From: a virus
Lineage: Duplodnaviria; Heunggongvirae; Uroviricota; Caudoviricetes
Virus record (IMG/VR): IMGVR_UViG_3300015360_001243
Coordinates: 1-49,998 of that record
DNA: 49,998 bases
Strand: one strand, 5' to 3'
The notes beneath the pieces were generated by a model. The model was not told where the DNA came from and searched no databases. It worked only from the letters and a program-made list of their open reading frames with translations. Below are positions 1 to 42,345 of this stretch, in pieces. The position numbers and the translations under genes were made by a program. The stretch's first letter is position 1. Every line of letters starts with the position of its first letter.

Positions 1-233
1 CTCCGCTACAAAAGCATGTACCCTGGTATTACTGGTTAGCTTCTCACGCTTTTACACACGGTGGGGCTGTAGCTCTAATTACAGGCTCTCCTTGGTTAGG
101 TATGGCTGAAACAGTCGCCCACTTCACAATTGACTACTTCAAGTGTATGAATAAGTACACGATTCATGGCGATCAACTTTTACATTTGGTTTGTAAGATT
201 CTTTGGTTAGTCATCTGGATTTTCATTAGCTAG
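1..233 (+). CDS. DUF3307-like membrane protein, 5'-truncated by the window edge
   Basis: Frame from position 3 is open to TAG at 231-233 and reads ...SHAFTHG...HFTIDYFK...GDQLLHL; H/HxxD/DQxxH pattern typical of DUF3307. Not in the supplied ORF track. Confidence 0.65.
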   Translation, partial: PLQKHVPWYYWLASHAFTHGGAVALITGSPWLGMAETVAHFTIDYFKCMNKYTIHGDQLLHLVCKILWLVIWIFIS

Positions 234-244
234 GAATAAATCAC

Positions 245-1039
245 ATGCAAGCAACGACTGTCGCCGCCCAAGGTTCGGCTGAGACTGATTTCAATTTGGC
301 CGCTTTCTCCGCCTCTCTTTCTGCGGAAGGTAAGACTGCACCTGCTGCTAAGACAGCTCTTAAGAGGCAAGTTGATGAACTTACTTCTGCTATTGATGCT
401 ATGAGAAAAAATCTGAATCTTGAATTCGTCAAGCATTCTGTTCGTGCATCTTCTAATATCCAAGAAAATTGGGAGTATGTTAAGCAGGAAAGAAAATTTC
501 AAGGCTACATTGCTACCTACGGTTATTCTTTTCATATTGATGATCTAGAGAAGATTAGTCAGGTTTATGACGCTCTTACCTCTATTGAAGAGGCAACTAT
601 AGCTTCTCCGACCTTTGCATTGAAGAGTCGTGACCGAATCAACAAGAAGTCATTGAAGGATGCTTTTGCAAAAGTTTCTGAAAGATTTGAGACAGAATGT
701 AAAGTTCTTGGATTGAATCCATCTGATTTCGAAATTGCTAGCTGGGAAGCTTCTTATAGCGATTCTCAGCGAAGTGACCGAGTGGCGGCCCATACTGGTC
801 GTGTTGGAGCTGCTAGGGCCATGTCCGCCGCAGCAACCACCTACTCCGCCGATGTAGCGATTGAATCTGCTATGGGCGGTGGAGCACCACGCGGAAACGA
901 CGAACCACTTGAATTAGTGGTTGGTAAAGCCCGAGTTACCGTTAACCTAGAAGTAGGTTATGCGCGTAGAGTTTCTCAAACAATTAGAGCTAAAGTGGTG
1001 AAAGAATCACCATTATCTGAGGAGATGACACATGCCTGA
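245..1039 (+). CDS. SIMPL/DUF541 (YggE/BP26-like) domain protein, no obvious signal peptide
   Basis: TVAAQGSAE...SAEGKTA, GYIATY, DDLEKISQVYDAL, PTFAL, LKDAFAK and the C-terminal P..VG..RVTVNLEVGY follow the SIMPL pattern as recalled. Confidence 0.7.
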   Translation: MQATTVAAQGSAETDFNLAAFSASLSAEGKTAPAAKTALKRQVDELTSAIDAMRKNLNLEFVKHSVRASSNIQENWEYVKQERKFQGYIATYGYSFHIDDLEKISQVYDALTSIEEATIASPTFALKSRDRINKKSLKDAFAKVSERFETECKVLGLNPSDFEIASWEASYSDSQRSDRVAAHTGRVGAARAMSAAATTYSADVAIESAMGGGAPRGNDEPLELVVGKARVTVNLEVGYARRVSQTIRAKVVKESPLSEEMTHA

Positions 1040-1547
1040 TGATAAATTGTCTATTGCCCAAGCGCTTCGTAGAATCAAGAAGCTGAAGGGTTTGATTGCT
1101 GAGCACCAACAACGTGCTCAAGTGGGTGTCAGCTATGACGTCACTAAAATTCCAGCTTTCCGTTATAAGGATGCTGTTGAAGGAATGTTTTCTACTCAAG
1201 ATGAAGTAGTTGCATTAGAATCTCGCGTAGCTGTTGCTAATGCGAAAACAGTTGTCACCATTCCTGGGGGCGCTCAAGTTTCGATGGCATTAGCTATTCG
1301 CACTCTTCAAGAGTTGAAGGGCCGCATTGCTTTCCTAAAGGGATTGCATTTGCGTAGTGAGACCGTCAAAGAGCGTACCAATGATTGGGACGACACTGAG
1401 ATGAAGCATATTGCTCGTGTTACTGAGACGACTTTCGTTTCAGACTTGAGCGAGCAAGACCGTGACCAACAGGTCAAGGCATTGCAAAATCAATTTGAAG
1501 CATTGAACAATGCTGTTGAAGACACTAACCACTTAGTGGTTGTGTAA
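1032..1547 (+). CDS. Helical coiled-coil protein resembling the DIP1984/DUF6847 family
   Basis: N-terminal LSIAQALRRIKKLK, central SMALAIRTLQELKGRI, C-terminal QVKALQNQFEALNNAVEDTN; start overlaps the upstream stop. Family assigned from memory only. Confidence 0.5.
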   Translation: MPDDKLSIAQALRRIKKLKGLIAEHQQRAQVGVSYDVTKIPAFRYKDAVEGMFSTQDEVVALESRVAVANAKTVVTIPGGAQVSMALAIRTLQELKGRIAFLKGLHLRSETVKERTNDWDDTEMKHIARVTETTFVSDLSEQDRDQQVKALQNQFEALNNAVEDTNHLVVV

Positions 1548-1553
1548 AAGTTT

Positions 1554-1834
1554 GCCCGTAAGGGCGCAAGGCTAGAGTACGAAACTAGCGTGAACAAGTT
1601 GGGATCCCCATTTCTCCACTGGGAATTATCTTCGGATAATTGTTAGAGAGCAAACCGGACATCCAATTAACAAGGATACAATCCGCTACTGATGCCGATA
1701 TCGCCCCAACGTTTTAAGTTGGTTAGCATTTAGAGTTTATAGCATCTTTAGCAGTCAGCCATTAGCCATAAGCTATTAAGGCTCAGCATGTAGCACTTGT
1801 CAAACCAGCTTTTAGCGGGACATTTTGTACTCTA
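1554..1834 (+). ncRNA. Candidate structured ncRNA or 3'-UTR element of unknown family
   Basis: GCCC-GTAA-GGGC hairpin 1554-1565; AATTATC-TTCG-GATAATT hairpin 1624-1641; long-range helices 1573-1584/1823-1834 (12 bp), 1598-1603/1705-1710 and 1682-1688/1813-1819; no ORF in the track. Confidence 0.6.
1723..1816 (+). repeat. Degenerate 7-nt-period tandem repeat, consensus about YYAGCMW
   Basis: AGC starts at 1725, 1741, 1750, 1757, 1764, 1771, 1785, 1792, 1807 and 1814; spacing is mostly 7 or a multiple of 7. Confidence 0.8.
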
Positions 1835-1846
1835 TTAATTAGGATT

Positions 1847-2335
1847 TGGAAGGAGTCATCTAGGTAATCGCGATAGGAAACTATCGAGGAAAGTCGGAGC
1901 AGCGCACAACAACTCACTGGCTAACGGCCAGGCACCGTGAGGTGACGGAAAGTGCAACAGAGAATAGACCGCCATTAGAATTAAAGACCAGCGTGGTAAG
2001 GGGTAGGCCCATTTTGTCCCCCTGTCGGGTCTCGGGAAAAAACGCAAGTGATGTTAAAGGGTATAGGCATCCCGTTGTCACGAGTAGCTAAATGACCGAA
2101 TAGCAAGAGACTCAGTTCTAATGGTAAGGGTGAAACGGCGGTGTAAGAGACCACCACATTTATAGTGATATAGATGGTATGGCAAACCCTGAGTGCTGCA
2201 AGCTAAATAGTAAGCGTCTGAGCCTTGTTGGGGCGAGCTTACGGGTTAGCGCTAAAGCTGTTAGGTAACTATCAGCGTAGATTAATGATTGCCTGGAATT
2301 ATACACAGGACTCCGCTTATTGATGACTCCTTCCA
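1847..2335 (+). ncRNA. rnpB: RNase P RNA, bacterial type A, with extended P12
   Basis: Perfect 14-bp P1 (1847-1860/2322-2335); GAGGAAAGTC at 1886; AGTGCAACAGA; GGTAAGGGTGAAACGG; GGCAAACCC; P4 AAG-U-CGGAG (1891-1899) pairs with CTCCG-CTT (2311-2318). Confidence 0.95.
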
Positions 2336-2352
2336 TTTTTATTGAGGACAAC

Positions 2353-2580
2353 ATGGATATTAAACTAGAACATATTATTGGTTGCATTATATCTACTTCT
2401 ATTGAGGCGGCTAAAACTGCTAATTCAATAGATGCACAAGATAATGGAATTAAATCGTTAGCTAATTGCTTGCGACATTCTGATTTATATTCTTCTGATT
2501 CTTTGGAAGAAAGATTAAAAGTAGCAGATTATTTAGATAGGCTTTGCGTCAAAAATGAAAATAGATCTAATTTATCCTAA
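2353..2580 (+). CDS. Hypothetical protein
   Basis: Start moved from 2320, which lies inside rnpB, to ATG 2353 after a GAGG SD. Confidence 0.55.
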   Translation: MDIKLEHIIGCIISTSIEAAKTANSIDAQDNGIKSLANCLRHSDLYSSDSLEERLKVADYLDRLCVKNENRSNLS

Positions 2581-3181
2581 AATTCCTGAGAACTCCAATA
2601 AGTTCTTGACCAAATGTCACGCTTTTGAAAAGTTAGATGGCACTAACATGCATTGGGTTTGGGCCCTGAATGAAGGTTGGCATCTCTTCGGAACACGCAG
2701 AACGCAGTTCGCTCTGACCAAAGAGGGCATTGATGATTTCACTAAGACCCATCCCGAGTTAGCTAACGCACCTCAGATTTTCAATGATAAGTTTCGTGAT
2801 AAGTTCACGACTATGCTTGCTAGAACTAAAACCTGGTGCCTCCAGAAATGGACTGTGTTCACCGAATTCCATGGCCCCAATTCATTTGCAGGGGGTCATG
2901 ACATGCAAGATGCTCGGATTAATGCTCAAACCTTAACCATCATTGACATCATGATTAATGATGAAATGATTACTCCACAACAACTAGTTCAAGATTTTAG
3001 TGATTTCAACATTGCTAAACTTGTCTACACTGGTAAGTACAGCGGACAGTTCGCTGAAGACGTTAGGAACGGCAAGTATGGCGTTAATGAGGGCGTTGTG
3101 GTCAAGGGAGTAGTTGATGCTCAAGTTTTTATGACCAAGGTTAAAACCAAAGACTATTTAAAACGTTTAGAGAAAAGATGA
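2555..3181 (+). CDS. RNA ligase-type nucleotidyltransferase (adenylyltransferase domain only)
   Basis: Motifs EKLDGTN (I), TEFHG (III), IIDI (IIIa), EGVVVK (IV) and KVK (V). Confidence 0.8.
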   Translation: MKIDLIYPKIPENSNKFLTKCHAFEKLDGTNMHWVWALNEGWHLFGTRRTQFALTKEGIDDFTKTHPELANAPQIFNDKFRDKFTTMLARTKTWCLQKWTVFTEFHGPNSFAGGHDMQDARINAQTLTIIDIMINDEMITPQQLVQDFSDFNIAKLVYTGKYSGQFAEDVRNGKYGVNEGVVVKGVVDAQVFMTKVKTKDYLKRLEKR

Positions 3182-3498
3182 AAACGGCAGATCTTAAAAC
3201 TTTTATTAAGGGATGGTTCGTTGGTAATTTTGATCCTTCTCTTATTAAAACAAATGATGTCGAAGTAGCAATCAAAAGATACAAAGCTGGTGATTATGAA
3301 TCAGCTCACTATCATAAGATAGCAACTGAGATTACAGTAATTGTTTCAGGGACTGTTCTAATGAATGGTATCAAATACTTTGATGATGATATAATTGTTA
3401 TTGAGCCTCTTGATAAAACAGATTTTGAGTGTCTCACGGATGTGATTACGGTGGTCGTCAAGTACCCCGGAGCTAATGACGATAAGTACGTTGATTGA
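3178..3498 (+). CDS. Cupin-fold protein
   Basis: HYHKIATEITVIVSG cupin motif 1; ATGA overlap with the upstream gene. Confidence 0.7.
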   Translation: MKTADLKTFIKGWFVGNFDPSLIKTNDVEVAIKRYKAGDYESAHYHKIATEITVIVSGTVLMNGIKYFDDDIIVIEPLDKTDFECLTDVITVVVKYPGANDDKYVD

Positions 3499-3520
3499 AT
3501 TTTCTATAATTCATAGCGTC

Positions 3521-3548
3521 TTGACTTGTTATAAGTCATGTTTACATT
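3521..3548 (+). promoter_or_regulatory. Sigma70-like promoter
   Basis: TTGACT-N16-TACATT in intergenic DNA upstream of ATG 3595. Confidence 0.45.
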
Positions 3549-3594
3549 CGTAATATTCAGAGGTAGAGTACCTCAAAATTTATGGAGAATTACT

Positions 3595-3909
3595 ATGAAC
3601 AGAACACCTAATGTAACTAAGATGACTGAGACGGCTGGCGAATGTTTCGATGCTGCCGATAAGATTGTGACTGAAATGGCAGACGGATCTCGCATTCAGA
3701 TTAAGGACTTAGCCACTAAGGTAAGTGCTGAAGTTGGAATGGAAGCTAAGCGAGTTCTTGGTTTCATCAATCACTACGTCCACGCAACTGACATTGCTTA
3801 TGTGACTCGTGGTAAGAAGGGCGGCCTTATCAAGGGCGTCAGACCAGCCAAGGTTGTCAAGACGCCCCGCGTCAAGAAGATTTCAGCTCCTGCTGATATC
3901 ACCCAGTAA
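3595..3909 (+). CDS. Hypothetical basic protein, possibly DNA-binding
   Basis: ATG 3595 follows GGAG SD; Lys/Arg-rich C-terminus (RGKKGG...KTPRVKK). Confidence 0.6.
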   Translation: MNRTPNVTKMTETAGECFDAADKIVTEMADGSRIQIKDLATKVSAEVGMEAKRVLGFINHYVHATDIAYVTRGKKGGLIKGVRPAKVVKTPRVKKISAPADITQ

Positions 3910-3952
3910 ATCCTTTTCTGTTAGGATATAGTTCCTAATTGAAGTAGGAATA

Positions 3953-4288
3953 ATGGTGACTAGAGATAGAAGATTACTTGAGCAAATAATCAAGCAATGG
4001 GCCCAGGATCATACTCCTGATTACCAAATTGCTGATTATTCGGCCGGTGAAGCGGCTATGAAAAAGACCGAGGGGCATTTTATTTGGGCTGTTCAAGAGG
4101 GCCATTCTGGAATTGATTTGCTTGCTTTGGCCGATCGTATTGAACTATTTTTAGACAATCGTAGAAATCGAAAGCATCCTGATGGAATGCTTTGCGATAA
4201 ATGTAAATCATTTTATCAGTTTGCGGAGCCTAACCAACCTGATGGATCTATGATTTGTTATTCCTGTCGAAACAATCCATTCGGGTAA
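3953..4288 (+). CDS. Hypothetical protein with C-terminal Zn-ribbon
   Basis: CDKC...CYSC pairs. Confidence 0.6.
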   Translation: MVTRDRRLLEQIIKQWAQDHTPDYQIADYSAGEAAMKKTEGHFIWAVQEGHSGIDLLALADRIELFLDNRRNRKHPDGMLCDKCKSFYQFAEPNQPDGSMICYSCRNNPFG

Positions 4289-4292
4289 GACT

Positions 4293-5582
4293 ATGAAAAC
4301 TATTGAGATTATTGGTGGCGGTACGGTTTCTCATGTTCGCAACCATCTTGCTCTCACGGCACCTGCCTATGGCAAGACAGCTAAAGTGATTGAAGCTCTA
4401 TGTTGGGAAGAAGCAGTTGACCATTATACTATTAATACCCATCTTACCAAGATGGCTAATAGTGGTAGGGGTTGTTTAGAAACCAACGAAGATGTATCTA
4501 ATCTAGTAGATAGACTAATTGCTAATCCAGATACTCGAATCATCTTCTTCAATCCAGCTCTGGTGGATTATGAGGGCTCCGTTATGATAGATGGGGTTTG
4601 GGAGCATCATTGGCTACAGAATATAGCCGAATCTACCAGCGGTAAGTATGAGCAACGCCTCAAGACTTCTGAGGGACAGAAGATGATGAAGCTAACTCCT
4701 GCCACAAAGATTGTTCAGAAGATTCGTAAAGAACGTAAGGATATCTTTCTAGTTGCCTTTAAGACAACTTGCGGAGCAACTGAGGATGAGCAGTTTTTAA
4801 CTGGGTTGCACTTACTCAAAAGTTCCTCCTGTAACCTCGTTCTAGCTAATGATACCAAGACTAGAACTAATATGATCATTACTCCTGAGCAGGCCCGATA
4901 TACCGTCACGACTAACCGAGAGGCCGCTCTAGAGAGTTTAGTGAAGATGGCCGTATCGAGAGCAGATGCTAAGTTCACTCGATCCACAGTAGTGGATGGT
5001 GATGCCATTCCTTGGAATAGCCACCTAATTCCGTCTAGTTTACGTGTAGTTGTCGATCATTGTGTTGATGAAGGTGCCTATAAAGTTTTCAATGGTGCAA
5101 CCGTTGGACACTTCGCTGTCAAGGTTAATAGTACTGACTTCATTACATCTAAGCGCAAGGCTAACTTCAATAAGCTTGGTGGCGTAGGTATGGTTCTCTG
5201 TCGCGCTGAGACTGCTGATTCGGTTATTGCGTACGGAGCCAAGCCTTCAGTAGGTGGCCAGTCTCAACGAATCATCTTCAAAGATCATCCGGAAGCAGAC
5301 TGCATTGTTCACTTTCACTGTCCTCCTAAGCCGGGCTCAGTGGTTGCAGTAAGGGAACAGCGGTATTTTGAATGTGGTAGCCATGAGTGTGGTAAGAACA
5401 CTAGTATCGGACTCAAAGAGGTAGCCCCAGGGATCAAATGTGTCTATCTAGATAACCATGGCCCCAACATTGTTTTCAACCGTAAGGTTCATCCTTACGA
5501 TGTTATTAAGTTTATCGACGAGAACTTTGACTTGTCCAAAGCAACTGACCAGGTGGATCGTAATGTTCATTCACTTCAATAA
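4293..5582 (+). CDS. Fusion of a CoaB/DFP-like nucleotide-binding domain and a class II aldolase-like domain
   Basis: IIGGGTV, FFNPALVDY, LVAFKTT, NLVLAND match a CoaB-like layout; KPSVG...PEADCIVHFHCP matches the class II aldolase HxH region. Confidence 0.6.
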   Translation: MKTIEIIGGGTVSHVRNHLALTAPAYGKTAKVIEALCWEEAVDHYTINTHLTKMANSGRGCLETNEDVSNLVDRLIANPDTRIIFFNPALVDYEGSVMIDGVWEHHWLQNIAESTSGKYEQRLKTSEGQKMMKLTPATKIVQKIRKERKDIFLVAFKTTCGATEDEQFLTGLHLLKSSSCNLVLANDTKTRTNMIITPEQARYTVTTNREAALESLVKMAVSRADAKFTRSTVVDGDAIPWNSHLIPSSLRVVVDHCVDEGAYKVFNGATVGHFAVKVNSTDFITSKRKANFNKLGGVGMVLCRAETADSVIAYGAKPSVGGQSQRIIFKDHPEADCIVHFHCPPKPGSVVAVREQRYFECGSHECGKNTSIGLKEVAPGIKCVYLDNHGPNIVFNRKVHPYDVIKFIDENFDLSKATDQVDRNVHSLQ

Positions 5583-41226: not shown

Positions 41227-42345
41227 ATGGGTTGTTGGAATGAAACGTGCGGCATTACTCAAATGCCGATTTGTGGTGGCGATCCGGTCCGAATGTTTCT
41301 CCTTGTAGAGGCTGAGCATTGGGACGAAGGTGGTGCGCTTTACTACTCGACAGACCTTTGGAAGCCATTTGGTTTGCCCCTCAAGGGAACCTATGACGAA
41401 TACGGTCGTATTGAGAACATCGAAGAAGACGCTCTATCTGATTTGCTTTTGCAATCTCTAAAAGAAATTATTGTAGAAGTTCCTAATAGAATGGGCGACA
41501 TCTTCAAGCGTGAAGAATTGACCTGGGAAACGGCAATCGACTTCCTAACTGACGAAGGGTTGAAAGTAACTGACCCTAATCACATTAGTTTTATTGGTAA
41601 GAAGCTAGAAGATTTACTTGCTTCAATGAAGGAGAAGTTTCCTGATTTGCCAGATAATGGCTGGTCTTCAGAGAGATCCGACCTTTCCGAGCAACAGAAA
41701 AAAGTTGTCAAGGATGACCCTGCCGTAGTCCGCATGTACCATGTAATGGTGCATGAAGAGGTTTATCAGGCCTTGGTTAACTATAAAGTTCCGTCCACTC
41801 GCTTTAGTTCTTGGACCGAGGGTAACTTGCGAGCTGAGCTTGAATTAGGTGCACAAAAATATATTGCAGATGTTCGATCTGAAATGGATGCAGTCAAAGG
41901 AACTCCAGAAGTTGAGGCTACTATTCAGCGTATGACAAGACAGTTACGTCGATTTGATACTGGTAATCGTTTTGTTTCTGCTACAAATCATTTGACTGGA
42001 AACTATGGGTCCGGCGAATATCTTCGGAAGTATCTTGATTTTGTGGAGAAGCGAATCAATGAAGGCGCACCGGATGACGATGCGGCCATCAAGATCTTGA
42101 CAGATCAATTTATTGATTTCGTTTGTCTTAGTCGGGCAATGAGCCTATTGCGTAAGATGTGGCATCCGCAATGTGGCAAGGGCGGCCAGGACAGAGAGTA
42201 TGTTCTTCACAAATACTTGGGAGAAACTATTGCTGCATTTTCTGAAAAGAAGATGAAAGAATGGGATGAAGAGATGGCTAAATACGAAGATGAAGATGAG
42301 GATGGGGAGGAAGAAGATGTCCAAGACGAGCAAGTTTCCTCCTAA
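41227..42345 (+). CDS. Hypothetical protein with acidic tail
   Basis: MGCWNETCGIT..PI..GD.V start; 372 aa. Confidence 0.7.
   Translation: MGCWNETCGITQMPICGGDPVRMFLLVEAEHWDEGGALYYSTDLWKPFGLPLKGTYDEYGRIENIEEDALSDLLLQSLKEIIVEVPNRMGDIFKREELTWETAIDFLTDEGLKVTDPNHISFIGKKLEDLLASMKEKFPDLPDNGWSSERSDLSEQQKKVVKDDPAVVRMYHVMVHEEVYQALVNYKVPSTRFSSWTEGNLRAELELGAQKYIADVRSEMDAVKGTPEVEATIQRMTRQLRRFDTGNRFVSATNHLTGNYGSGEYLRKYLDFVEKRINEGAPDDDAAIKILTDQFIDFVCLSRAMSLLRKMWHPQCGKGGQDREYVLHKYLGETIAAFSEKKMKEWDEEMAKYEDEDEDGEEEDVQDEQVSS

Follow-up and report, generated by a model that had tools for sequence, protein, structure and literature searches.

What is the function of a row of AGC triplets that follow each other every seven nucleotides in a region of a phage genome that is free of open reading frames? 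The window analysed here, that is the whole stretch of 49,998 nucleotides, comprises positions 1-49,998 of the 153,198-base IMG/VR record IMGVR_UViG_3300015360_001243. Since these 153,198 bases are estimated by CheckV to be only about 35% complete, the record belongs to a giant phage. Nearly all genes of the window are located on the plus strand, and the phage carries 15 tRNA genes as well as a class A RNase P RNA (1852-2334, 262.5 bits). The array lies in a 304-nucleotide ORF-free stretch (1548-1851), flanked by the gene for a 171-amino-acid protein on one side and by the RNase P RNA on the other (the features of the locus are collected in Table 1). In the RNase P RNA, ~135 nucleotides (approximately 1980-2112) are inserted after position 136 and before position 137 of the model, and the RNase P RNAs of the relatives L003 and L015 are compact (330-344 nucleotides) and do not have this insertion.

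Table 1. Positions of the genes, helices and repeat units at the array locus (positions refer to the window).
Feature	Position	Strand	Remarks
Cytosolic SIMPL (DUF541) gene	245-1039		overlap with the beginning of the DIP1984-like gene (ATG 1032, stop 1037-1039)
DIP1984-fold (DUF6847-like) gene, 171 aa	1032..1547	+	constant neighbour of the heptad RNA
P0 hairpin	1554-1565	+	GCCC-GUAA-GGGC, immediately after the stop codon; clade-specific
Structured non-coding RNA body, ~260 nt	1573-1834	+	from the P1 5' strand through the P1 3' strand
P1 helix	1573-1584/1823-1834	+	12/12 pairs in the window; long-range closing helix
P2 helix	1596-1602 (AAGUUGG)/1805-1811 (CCAGCUU)	+	7/7 pairs in the window; closes the array domain
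P3 hairpin	1624-1641	+	AAUUAUC-UUCG-GAUAAUU; 5' domain
P4 hairpin	1661-1676	+	AUCC...GGAU; 5' domain; RNAalifold
GAY-NNN hexad motif	1691-1699	+	GAUGCC GAU; 1691-1695 pairs with 1726-1730 (first array unit), 5/5 pairs
P6 hairpin	1706-1722	+	CCAAC-GUUUUAA-GUUGG; 5/5 pairs; clade-specific insertion
Leading array units	1724-1747	+	UAGC 1724-1727, UAGA 1731-1734, UAGC 1740-1743; steps of 7 and 9 nt
Seven strictly phased heptads	1749-1797	+	UAGCAGU CAGCCAU UAGCCAU AAGCUAU UAAGGCU CAGCAUG UAGCACU
RNA-ligase-like gene	2555-3181		PF09414 E 3.3e-5, just under the cut-off; phrog_548; a short distance past the RNase P RNA

A preliminary description of this DNA had listed ten AGC triplets, at 1725, 1741, 1750, 1757, 1764, 1771, 1785, 1792, 1807 and 1814, and had placed those from 1750 to 1792 in an exact register of seven nucleotides. 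Positions and register proved to be exact, and the in-register triplet at 1778 reads AAG. The proposed extent of the array, 1723-1816, holds for the AGCs through 1792 and fails beyond: AGC 1807 is part of the 3' strand of helix P2 and AGC 1814 belongs to a linker, so that neither is an array unit. The periodicity withstood the comparison with shuffled sequence that had been suggested as a check, since the lag-7 self-identity of 0.47 (1723-1816) was reached by only 20 of 5,000 dinucleotide shuffles, even when this value was counted at any lag from 2 to 21. The raw number of AGC triplets is not significant (1,231 of 5,000 dinucleotide shuffles), because such shuffles preserve AG and GC. When all 153,198 bases of the record were scanned with the 64 trinucleotides at periods from 4 to 12, at least six of seven units were present only for AGC with period 7 at 1750 and for GAA with period 12 at 116669. 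The latter array is located outside the window and is probably a coding repeat. Tandem Repeats Finder reports only 3.1 copies at the AGC array, a low number that results from the differences between the spacers.

To compare the array between genomes, homologues of the 171-amino-acid gene were taken from viral, metagenome and genome collections, which gave 41 distinct loci, each with at least 230 nucleotides of downstream sequence. Arrays were scored for A2, G3, C4 and U7 across seven units (heptad score, maximum 28, threshold at least 19). Homologous loci do carry the 7-nucleotide array: 40 of the 41 reach the threshold downstream of the gene, as compared to none of the 41 upstream regions (maximum 18) and none of 820 shuffles (maximum 17). 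The 41st locus, L046, has a score of 18, and its array is interrupted by an inserted hairpin. The logo of 288 units from 36 loci reads N, A (91%), G (78%), C (69%), N, N, U (74%), with positions 1, 5 and 6 near background composition. Since the register of the units was chosen on AG alone, the signals for C and U are independent of this choice. In the closest relative (74% protein identity) all AGCs are kept and the flanking bases are changed. Together with the turnover of the spacers, the presence of the array in 40 of 41 loci against 0/41 and 0/820 in the controls excludes slippage or chance, and the local slippage product that the preliminary description had kept as an alternative can be discarded. 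The array is thus a selected, phased and multivalent motif, in which A, G, C and U are kept and three positions per unit vary freely.

The usual layout consists of two leading units 7 nucleotides apart, a step of 9 nucleotides and eight strictly phased units; the clade of the window contains one further 9-nucleotide step. Number and phase of the units are conserved between clades that share only 35-40% protein identity. Across clades, the fifth or sixth phased unit systematically deviates from the consensus (AAGG, AGGN or AGAN), showing that the array units are not equivalent. This unit (1777-1783 in the window) recurs in L017, L018, L040, L042, L026, L029, L055 and L075, with the variants UAAGGCU, CAAGACU, UAGGAAU, UAGAAAU and CAGGGAU. 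In L019 (~3240-3275), L046 (~2190-2225) and L025, an inserted hairpin splits the array in its middle, behind the fourth or fifth unit. These hairpins suggest that the row of units can work as two halves.

The array is part of a larger folded RNA, which we call heptad RNA. A profile of the close clade finds it with nhmmer as the single match in the record (1549-1845, E 2.7e-75). R1, a covariance model trained on six sequences from a clade other than that of the window, matches the window partially (1616-1790) and recognises 18 loci over the full length, the six training sequences and twelve from other clades. In Rfam 15, the heptad RNA of the window has no match at the gathering score; a search of 1500-1851 at E up to 10 returned two noise matches to animal lncRNA models only, and the heptad RNA of seven related loci was unmatched at E up to 0.1. 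The Rfam 15 families that do not match the heptad RNA include tmRNA, 6S, RAGATH-27, ROOL and GOLLD, and no tmRNA was found by ARAGORN.

RNAalifold predictions on two separate clades revealed a common plan with the helices P1, P2, P3 and P4. In a sequence-only MAFFT alignment of nine close relatives, 89% of the cells of P1 are paired; in the 34-row model alignment its counterpart is paired in 94%, and all 14 pairs are changed on both sides. P2, the 3' strand of which comes directly after the array, is paired in 81% with three covarying pairs in the nine close relatives, and in 83.5% with five of seven pairs covarying across clades in the model alignment. The P3 hairpin shows changes on both sides in six of seven pairs (81% paired, nine relatives), and all seven pairs of its counterpart covary in the model alignment (94.6% paired). 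In P4, pairs are exchanged from GC to AU, CG to UA and UA to CG in the nine relatives (columns 147-150/162-165). Over the whole R1-based alignment, which is fitted to the model and thereby favours structure, 86.2% of the cells are paired compared to 36-46% with slid partners, and 44 of 51 pairs are changed on both sides. G-U pairs are frequent in the helices that surround the array, which fits an RNA read from the plus strand. Two hairpins are less widespread: P0 was found in four to five of the nine close relatives and is missing from other clades, and P6, which is CCAGC/GCUGG in relatives, is likewise missing from other clades.

The helix 1682-1688/1813-1819 had been proposed to enclose the array. 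It has seven pairs in the window, but in the nine relatives it is paired in only 37-44%, the same as the slid controls, and was rejected as closing helix. The more general idea that the array is displayed inside an RNA closed by helices was correct, with P2 and P1 as the conserved closures. A U-rich run is located within a few bases 3' of P1 in L017, L018, L019, L022, L026, L029, L035 and L062, and is weak in the window; judged from these sequences, P1 may also act as a 3' end resembling a terminator. The helix formed by the hexad motif and the first array unit is weaker in the close clade (64% paired), and its counterpart in the model alignment (helix 7) is paired in 84% with six of seven pairs covarying. 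GAY-NNN hexads in two to four repeats form a second periodic element just 5' of the arrays in L026, L036, L088 and L089. Those of L088 read GAC ACC GAC AGC GAC GCC GAU GCU, and hexads partly pair with the first heptad units.

No covariation was found among the variable positions of the array (top pair 0.65; 95th percentile of the null 0.62, maximum of the null 0.72). In the clade of the window, RNAalifold predicts no helix of at least three pairs in the array but isolated two-pair contacts only, and in the second clade the pairs of the array are few, weak and non-contiguous. Folding of the single sequence gives a mean pairing probability of 0.58 in the array versus 0.63 in the rest of the RNA, which on its own does not demonstrate an open array, and the array can only be called putatively single-stranded.

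In every homologous locus with enough flanking sequence, the heptad RNA starts 7-30 nucleotides past the stop codon of the DIP1984-like gene, and between the two no promoter-like or terminator-like site was predicted in the window. What lies around this pair is variable. Downstream of the heptad RNA, the RNase P RNA is found here and protein genes or tRNAs elsewhere, and the upstream gene in other clades encodes an HNH endonuclease, a methyltransferase or a TrmB-like regulator. In the contig of another relative, a gene for a PTH2 peptidyl-tRNA hydrolase is located immediately upstream of the DIP1984-like gene. A linkage of the heptad RNA to RNase P was dismissed: in L015 an RNase P RNA directly follows an unrelated ORF and neither the gene nor the array is present, and other clades have the heptad RNA and no RNase P. 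The SIMPL gene was also dropped as a third constant partner, since only the window and L018 have it next to the DIP1984-like gene.

Five new DUF6847 loci came from 401 sampled cellular genomes of ~1 Mb, and a period-7 array is located just downstream of the gene in all five. The proteins are 27-43% identical to those of the phages, and the units read UNAGC (L090, L091), UNAG (L089), UNARG (L088) and UCAAG (L087); R1 recognises L090 over the full length (41.7 bits). The pair of gene and RNA is therefore older and wider than the phage clade. A unit sequence that varies between protein clades is the pattern expected of a cognate pair, here seen in the sequences of a small sample of five cellular loci. 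The DIP1984-like gene is rare in a Patescibacteria-type sample (3 of 301 genomes). Among isolated phages (50,697 phage records), neither tblastn with the protein nor megablast with positions 1-5000 gave matches. T5.081 (hhalign probability 0.1) and the RNAX of phage T5 were considered as relatives and are unrelated. In T5 (L086, AY543070), a tRNA-like match (41432-41503, minus strand; 38.3 bits with the Rfam tRNA model), which lacks a tRNA annotation, falls inside the annotated 719-nucleotide 'RNAX, stable RNA with unknown functions'.

The protein encoded next to the heptad RNA has a fold that is known from a solved structure. DIP1984 from Corynebacterium diphtheriae (3KDQ) was solved in 2009 in an entry titled 'functionally unknown', and DIP1984/DUF6847 proteins are often annotated as 'septicolysin'. 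The publications searched on DIP1984, DUF6847 and septicolysin give no function and record no RNA partner. The AlphaFold2 model of the 171-amino-acid protein (pLDDT 94.8) agrees with this fold (3KDQ_A, VIA Z 14.5, rmsd 2.2 A, 149/152 residues), as does the Foldseek comparison (TM 0.74-0.82). By sequence the assignment is less direct: PF20935 matches five of six relatives (best E 4.9e-6) and not the window protein at E up to 0.01, NF038048 scores 20.5 bits compared to a curated cut-off of 70, and the phage clade falls under this NCBIfam cut-off. The DIP1984-like subfamily comprises at least 191 clusters in metagenomes (50% identity, E up to 1e-30).

When four copies of the protein were predicted together, a symmetric self-interface was obtained with a score of 0.68 versus 0.00 for the best control, with at least 88% of the contacts common to the runs and a partner pLDDT of at least 86; the model may remember the solved relative 3KDQ. 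Of 30 solved homomeric pairs, 20 come up to the mark used for such interfaces, as does 1 of 23 single chains; these counts apply only roughly here, because a custom alignment and four copies were used. The protein is thus predicted to self-associate, and the predicted interface is that of a closed two-fold dimer, not of a head-to-tail chain. The positions that are conserved in 85% or more of 52 relatives and lie off the interface cluster in the N-terminal helix (R13, K16, K17, K19, R28) and the C-terminal helix (R144, Q152, N159, E163, N166, H167). On the basis of conservation and the model, these residues are candidates for a surface that contacts a ligand. Overall, the protein lacks a basic character, with a net charge of -1 here and a median of 0 in the 52 relatives.

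The explanation that we prefer, and to which we give somewhat less than an even chance, is that the array serves as a phased docking rail that would line up about eight to ten protomers of the adjacent DIP1984-fold protein. P1 and P2 would close a domain that holds about ten U-N-A-G-C-N-N units in fixed register, two or three leading ones and then seven or eight in strict 7-nucleotide phase, and a repeated partner would dock there with one protomer per unit. This partner would most likely be the DIP1984-fold protein that is encoded immediately upstream and is probably co-transcribed with the RNA. As the protein is predicted to dimerise, four or five dimers could line up on the rail and give rise to a defined particle of protein and RNA. 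Base-specific recognition would concern A and G of each unit, along with the C next to them and the U that precedes them by two bases, comparable to the recognition of XAG by HutP. We infer not only an array that is bound by protein, but also the identity of the partner, the stoichiometry and the role of the particle, for which the neighbours found here (RNase P RNA, tRNAs and RNA ligase) give a hint towards RNA metabolism.

Several results speak for such a rail. A dedicated partner is more likely than a target in the host in view of the strict tie of the RNA to a single neighbouring gene, the array is devoid of covariation-supported pairing within helices that covary strongly, and gene and RNA are not separated by a promoter-like or terminator-like site. 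Other results are less easily reconciled with it: the protein lacks a basic charge, and its interface alone does not explain a row of eight to ten sites. Single-sequence folding does not show the array to be unpaired, the non-equivalent units are not predicted by a simple repeat of identical sites, and the adjacency of gene and RNA would be equally expected if the RNA acted on the mRNA of the gene.

It might also be possible that the rail binds another repeated partner, such as an oligomeric RNA-binding protein of the host or phage, which the RNA would sequester or deliver in the manner of a sponge or decoy, the second idea of the preliminary description; a host nuclease, a toxin or a translation factor could be the target, for example. 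We consider this unlikely. A conserved periodic motif fits any multivalent binder. The adjacent protein with its missing basic charge and closed predicted dimer leaves room for another binder, and counter-defence against RNA-targeting host systems is plausible in a context of tRNAs, RNase P and RNA ligase. A host decoy, however, should not stay with one gene across phages and cellular genomes of ~1 Mb that have quite different gene neighbourhoods, and no protein of the HutP or TRAP family was found in the 153-kb record (~35% complete). A device consisting of RNA only is decidedly unlikely. Here the units would serve for regular contacts of RNA with RNA, tertiary or intermolecular, such as in a self-assembly of several RNA copies like that of the large ornate RNAs or in phased short pairing with another RNA, and the protein would be only a chaperone or unrelated. 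The conservation of position-specific unit identities across clades and the hairpin tolerated in the middle of the array in some relatives (L019, L046) would agree with this, as would an array that is not clearly open in single-sequence folding; but the lack of covariation in the array speaks against it, a tight RNA fold would not be expected to leave three positions of each unit almost random, and a period-7 GCU complement is absent from both strands of the record.

Regulation in cis appears slightly less probable again: the protein or another factor would bind the rail in the nascent transcript and control the formation of P2 and P1 in the style of HutP or TRAP, and thereby the formation of the 3' end, the read-through into stable-RNA genes further downstream, or the translation of the DIP1984-like mRNA and its stability. 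This would agree with the U-rich tract that follows P1 in many relatives and with the RNase P RNA or tRNAs located downstream in several clades; a separate promoter is not predicted, and HutP and TRAP use similar repeats for the control of termination. Yet the element is located 3' of the linked gene and is not a leader, the downstream content is not conserved, and ~260 nucleotides with five or six covarying helices go far beyond the needs of an attenuator. An array that has no function and results from slippage or chance periodicity, or a repeat acting at the DNA level such as protein-binding iterons, is extremely improbable. The AGC count taken by itself would allow it, as it is not significant against dinucleotide shuffles, but not the conservation in 40 of 41 loci with turnover of the spacers, the uniqueness in the record, and surrounding helices whose compensatory changes and G-U pairs are meaningful only for a plus-strand RNA. 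Mimicry of codons or anticodon loops (NAG codons, complement of tRNA-Ser GCU) was considered and dropped, with the base before AG being uniform. A C following AG does not fit tRNA position 37.

Should the docking rail be real, gene and RNA might represent an undescribed class of ribonucleoproteins in giant phages and in bacteria with very small genomes, in which a DIP1984-fold protein is held in register, one protomer per 7 nucleotides, on a U-N-A-G-C rail of eight to ten units; we put this forward tentatively and with more doubt than confidence. Even though the partner gene accounts for at least 191 metagenome clusters, no catalogue lists the heptad RNA. A ribonucleoprotein would be the first lead to a function for the DIP1984/DUF6847 family, and a dedicated RNA partner would turn an orphan fold into a protein-RNA particle that can be tested. 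Being encoded among an RNase P RNA, 15 tRNAs and an RNA ligase, the particle may be part of the takeover or protection of host RNA metabolism by giant phages. A strict 7-nucleotide rail with a fixed number of units would add, after TRAP and HutP, a further case of assembly on RNA that is coded by length and phase, and could serve as a programmable scaffold.

The preliminary description had compared the repeats to the binding sites of TRAP. This analogy is apt, and HutP is closer still, with XAG and 4-nucleotide spacers adding up to a period of 7. In the hut terminator RNA of Bacillus subtilis, HutP recognises A and G of XAG repeats, in which the first base can be any and which are separated by four bases, each triplet being bound by one protomer of the oligomer (PMC2425495). 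The heptad array has the same NAG with four-base spacing, conserved A and G (91% and 78%) and a free first base, and in addition keeps the C after AG and the U two bases before. The arrangement is different, since the HutP sites form two clusters of three triplets, 12-17 nucleotides apart, that flank a terminator stem in a 5' leader, whereas here eight to ten contiguous units are located 3' of a gene and within the long-range helices of a ~260-nucleotide RNA. The protein beside the heptad RNA also has another fold (DIP1984), and the 153-kb record (~35% complete) gave no match to a HutP family protein (PF09021) with E values allowed up to 1.

In the trp leader, a single-stranded row of NAG triplets is matched one-to-one to the subunits of an oligomer, as is proposed here by analogy. 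TRAP binds 11 (G/U)AG repeats around its 11-mer ring, with spacers of 2-3 nucleotides, a period of 5-6 and G or U as first base. The heptad spacers are longer (4 nucleotides) and the first base is uniform, and the TRAP sites are part of a regulatory leader and not of a stand-alone structured RNA; TrpBP (PF02081) has no match in the 153-kb record. The heptad RNA resembles CsrB and RsmZ in that a short motif is repeated many times on a non-coding RNA and would be presented to a protein that forms dimers. In those RNAs GGA is presented in hairpin loops with irregular spacing and a global regulator encoded elsewhere is titrated, in contrast to the strict phase, the UNAGC motif and the tie to one adjacent gene seen here; hairpins of at least three pairs that would display the heptad units are not predicted by RNAalifold. 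Type III toxin-antitoxin systems (ToxI) are similar in that an RNA with repeats is located beside the gene of the protein that it is presumed to bind. The ToxI repeats are ~34-36 nucleotides long, are located upstream of the gene for the endoribonuclease toxin, behind a terminator, and undergo cleavage by this toxin, whereas the heptad RNA presents 7-nucleotide units downstream of a DIP1984-fold gene and inside one folded RNA.
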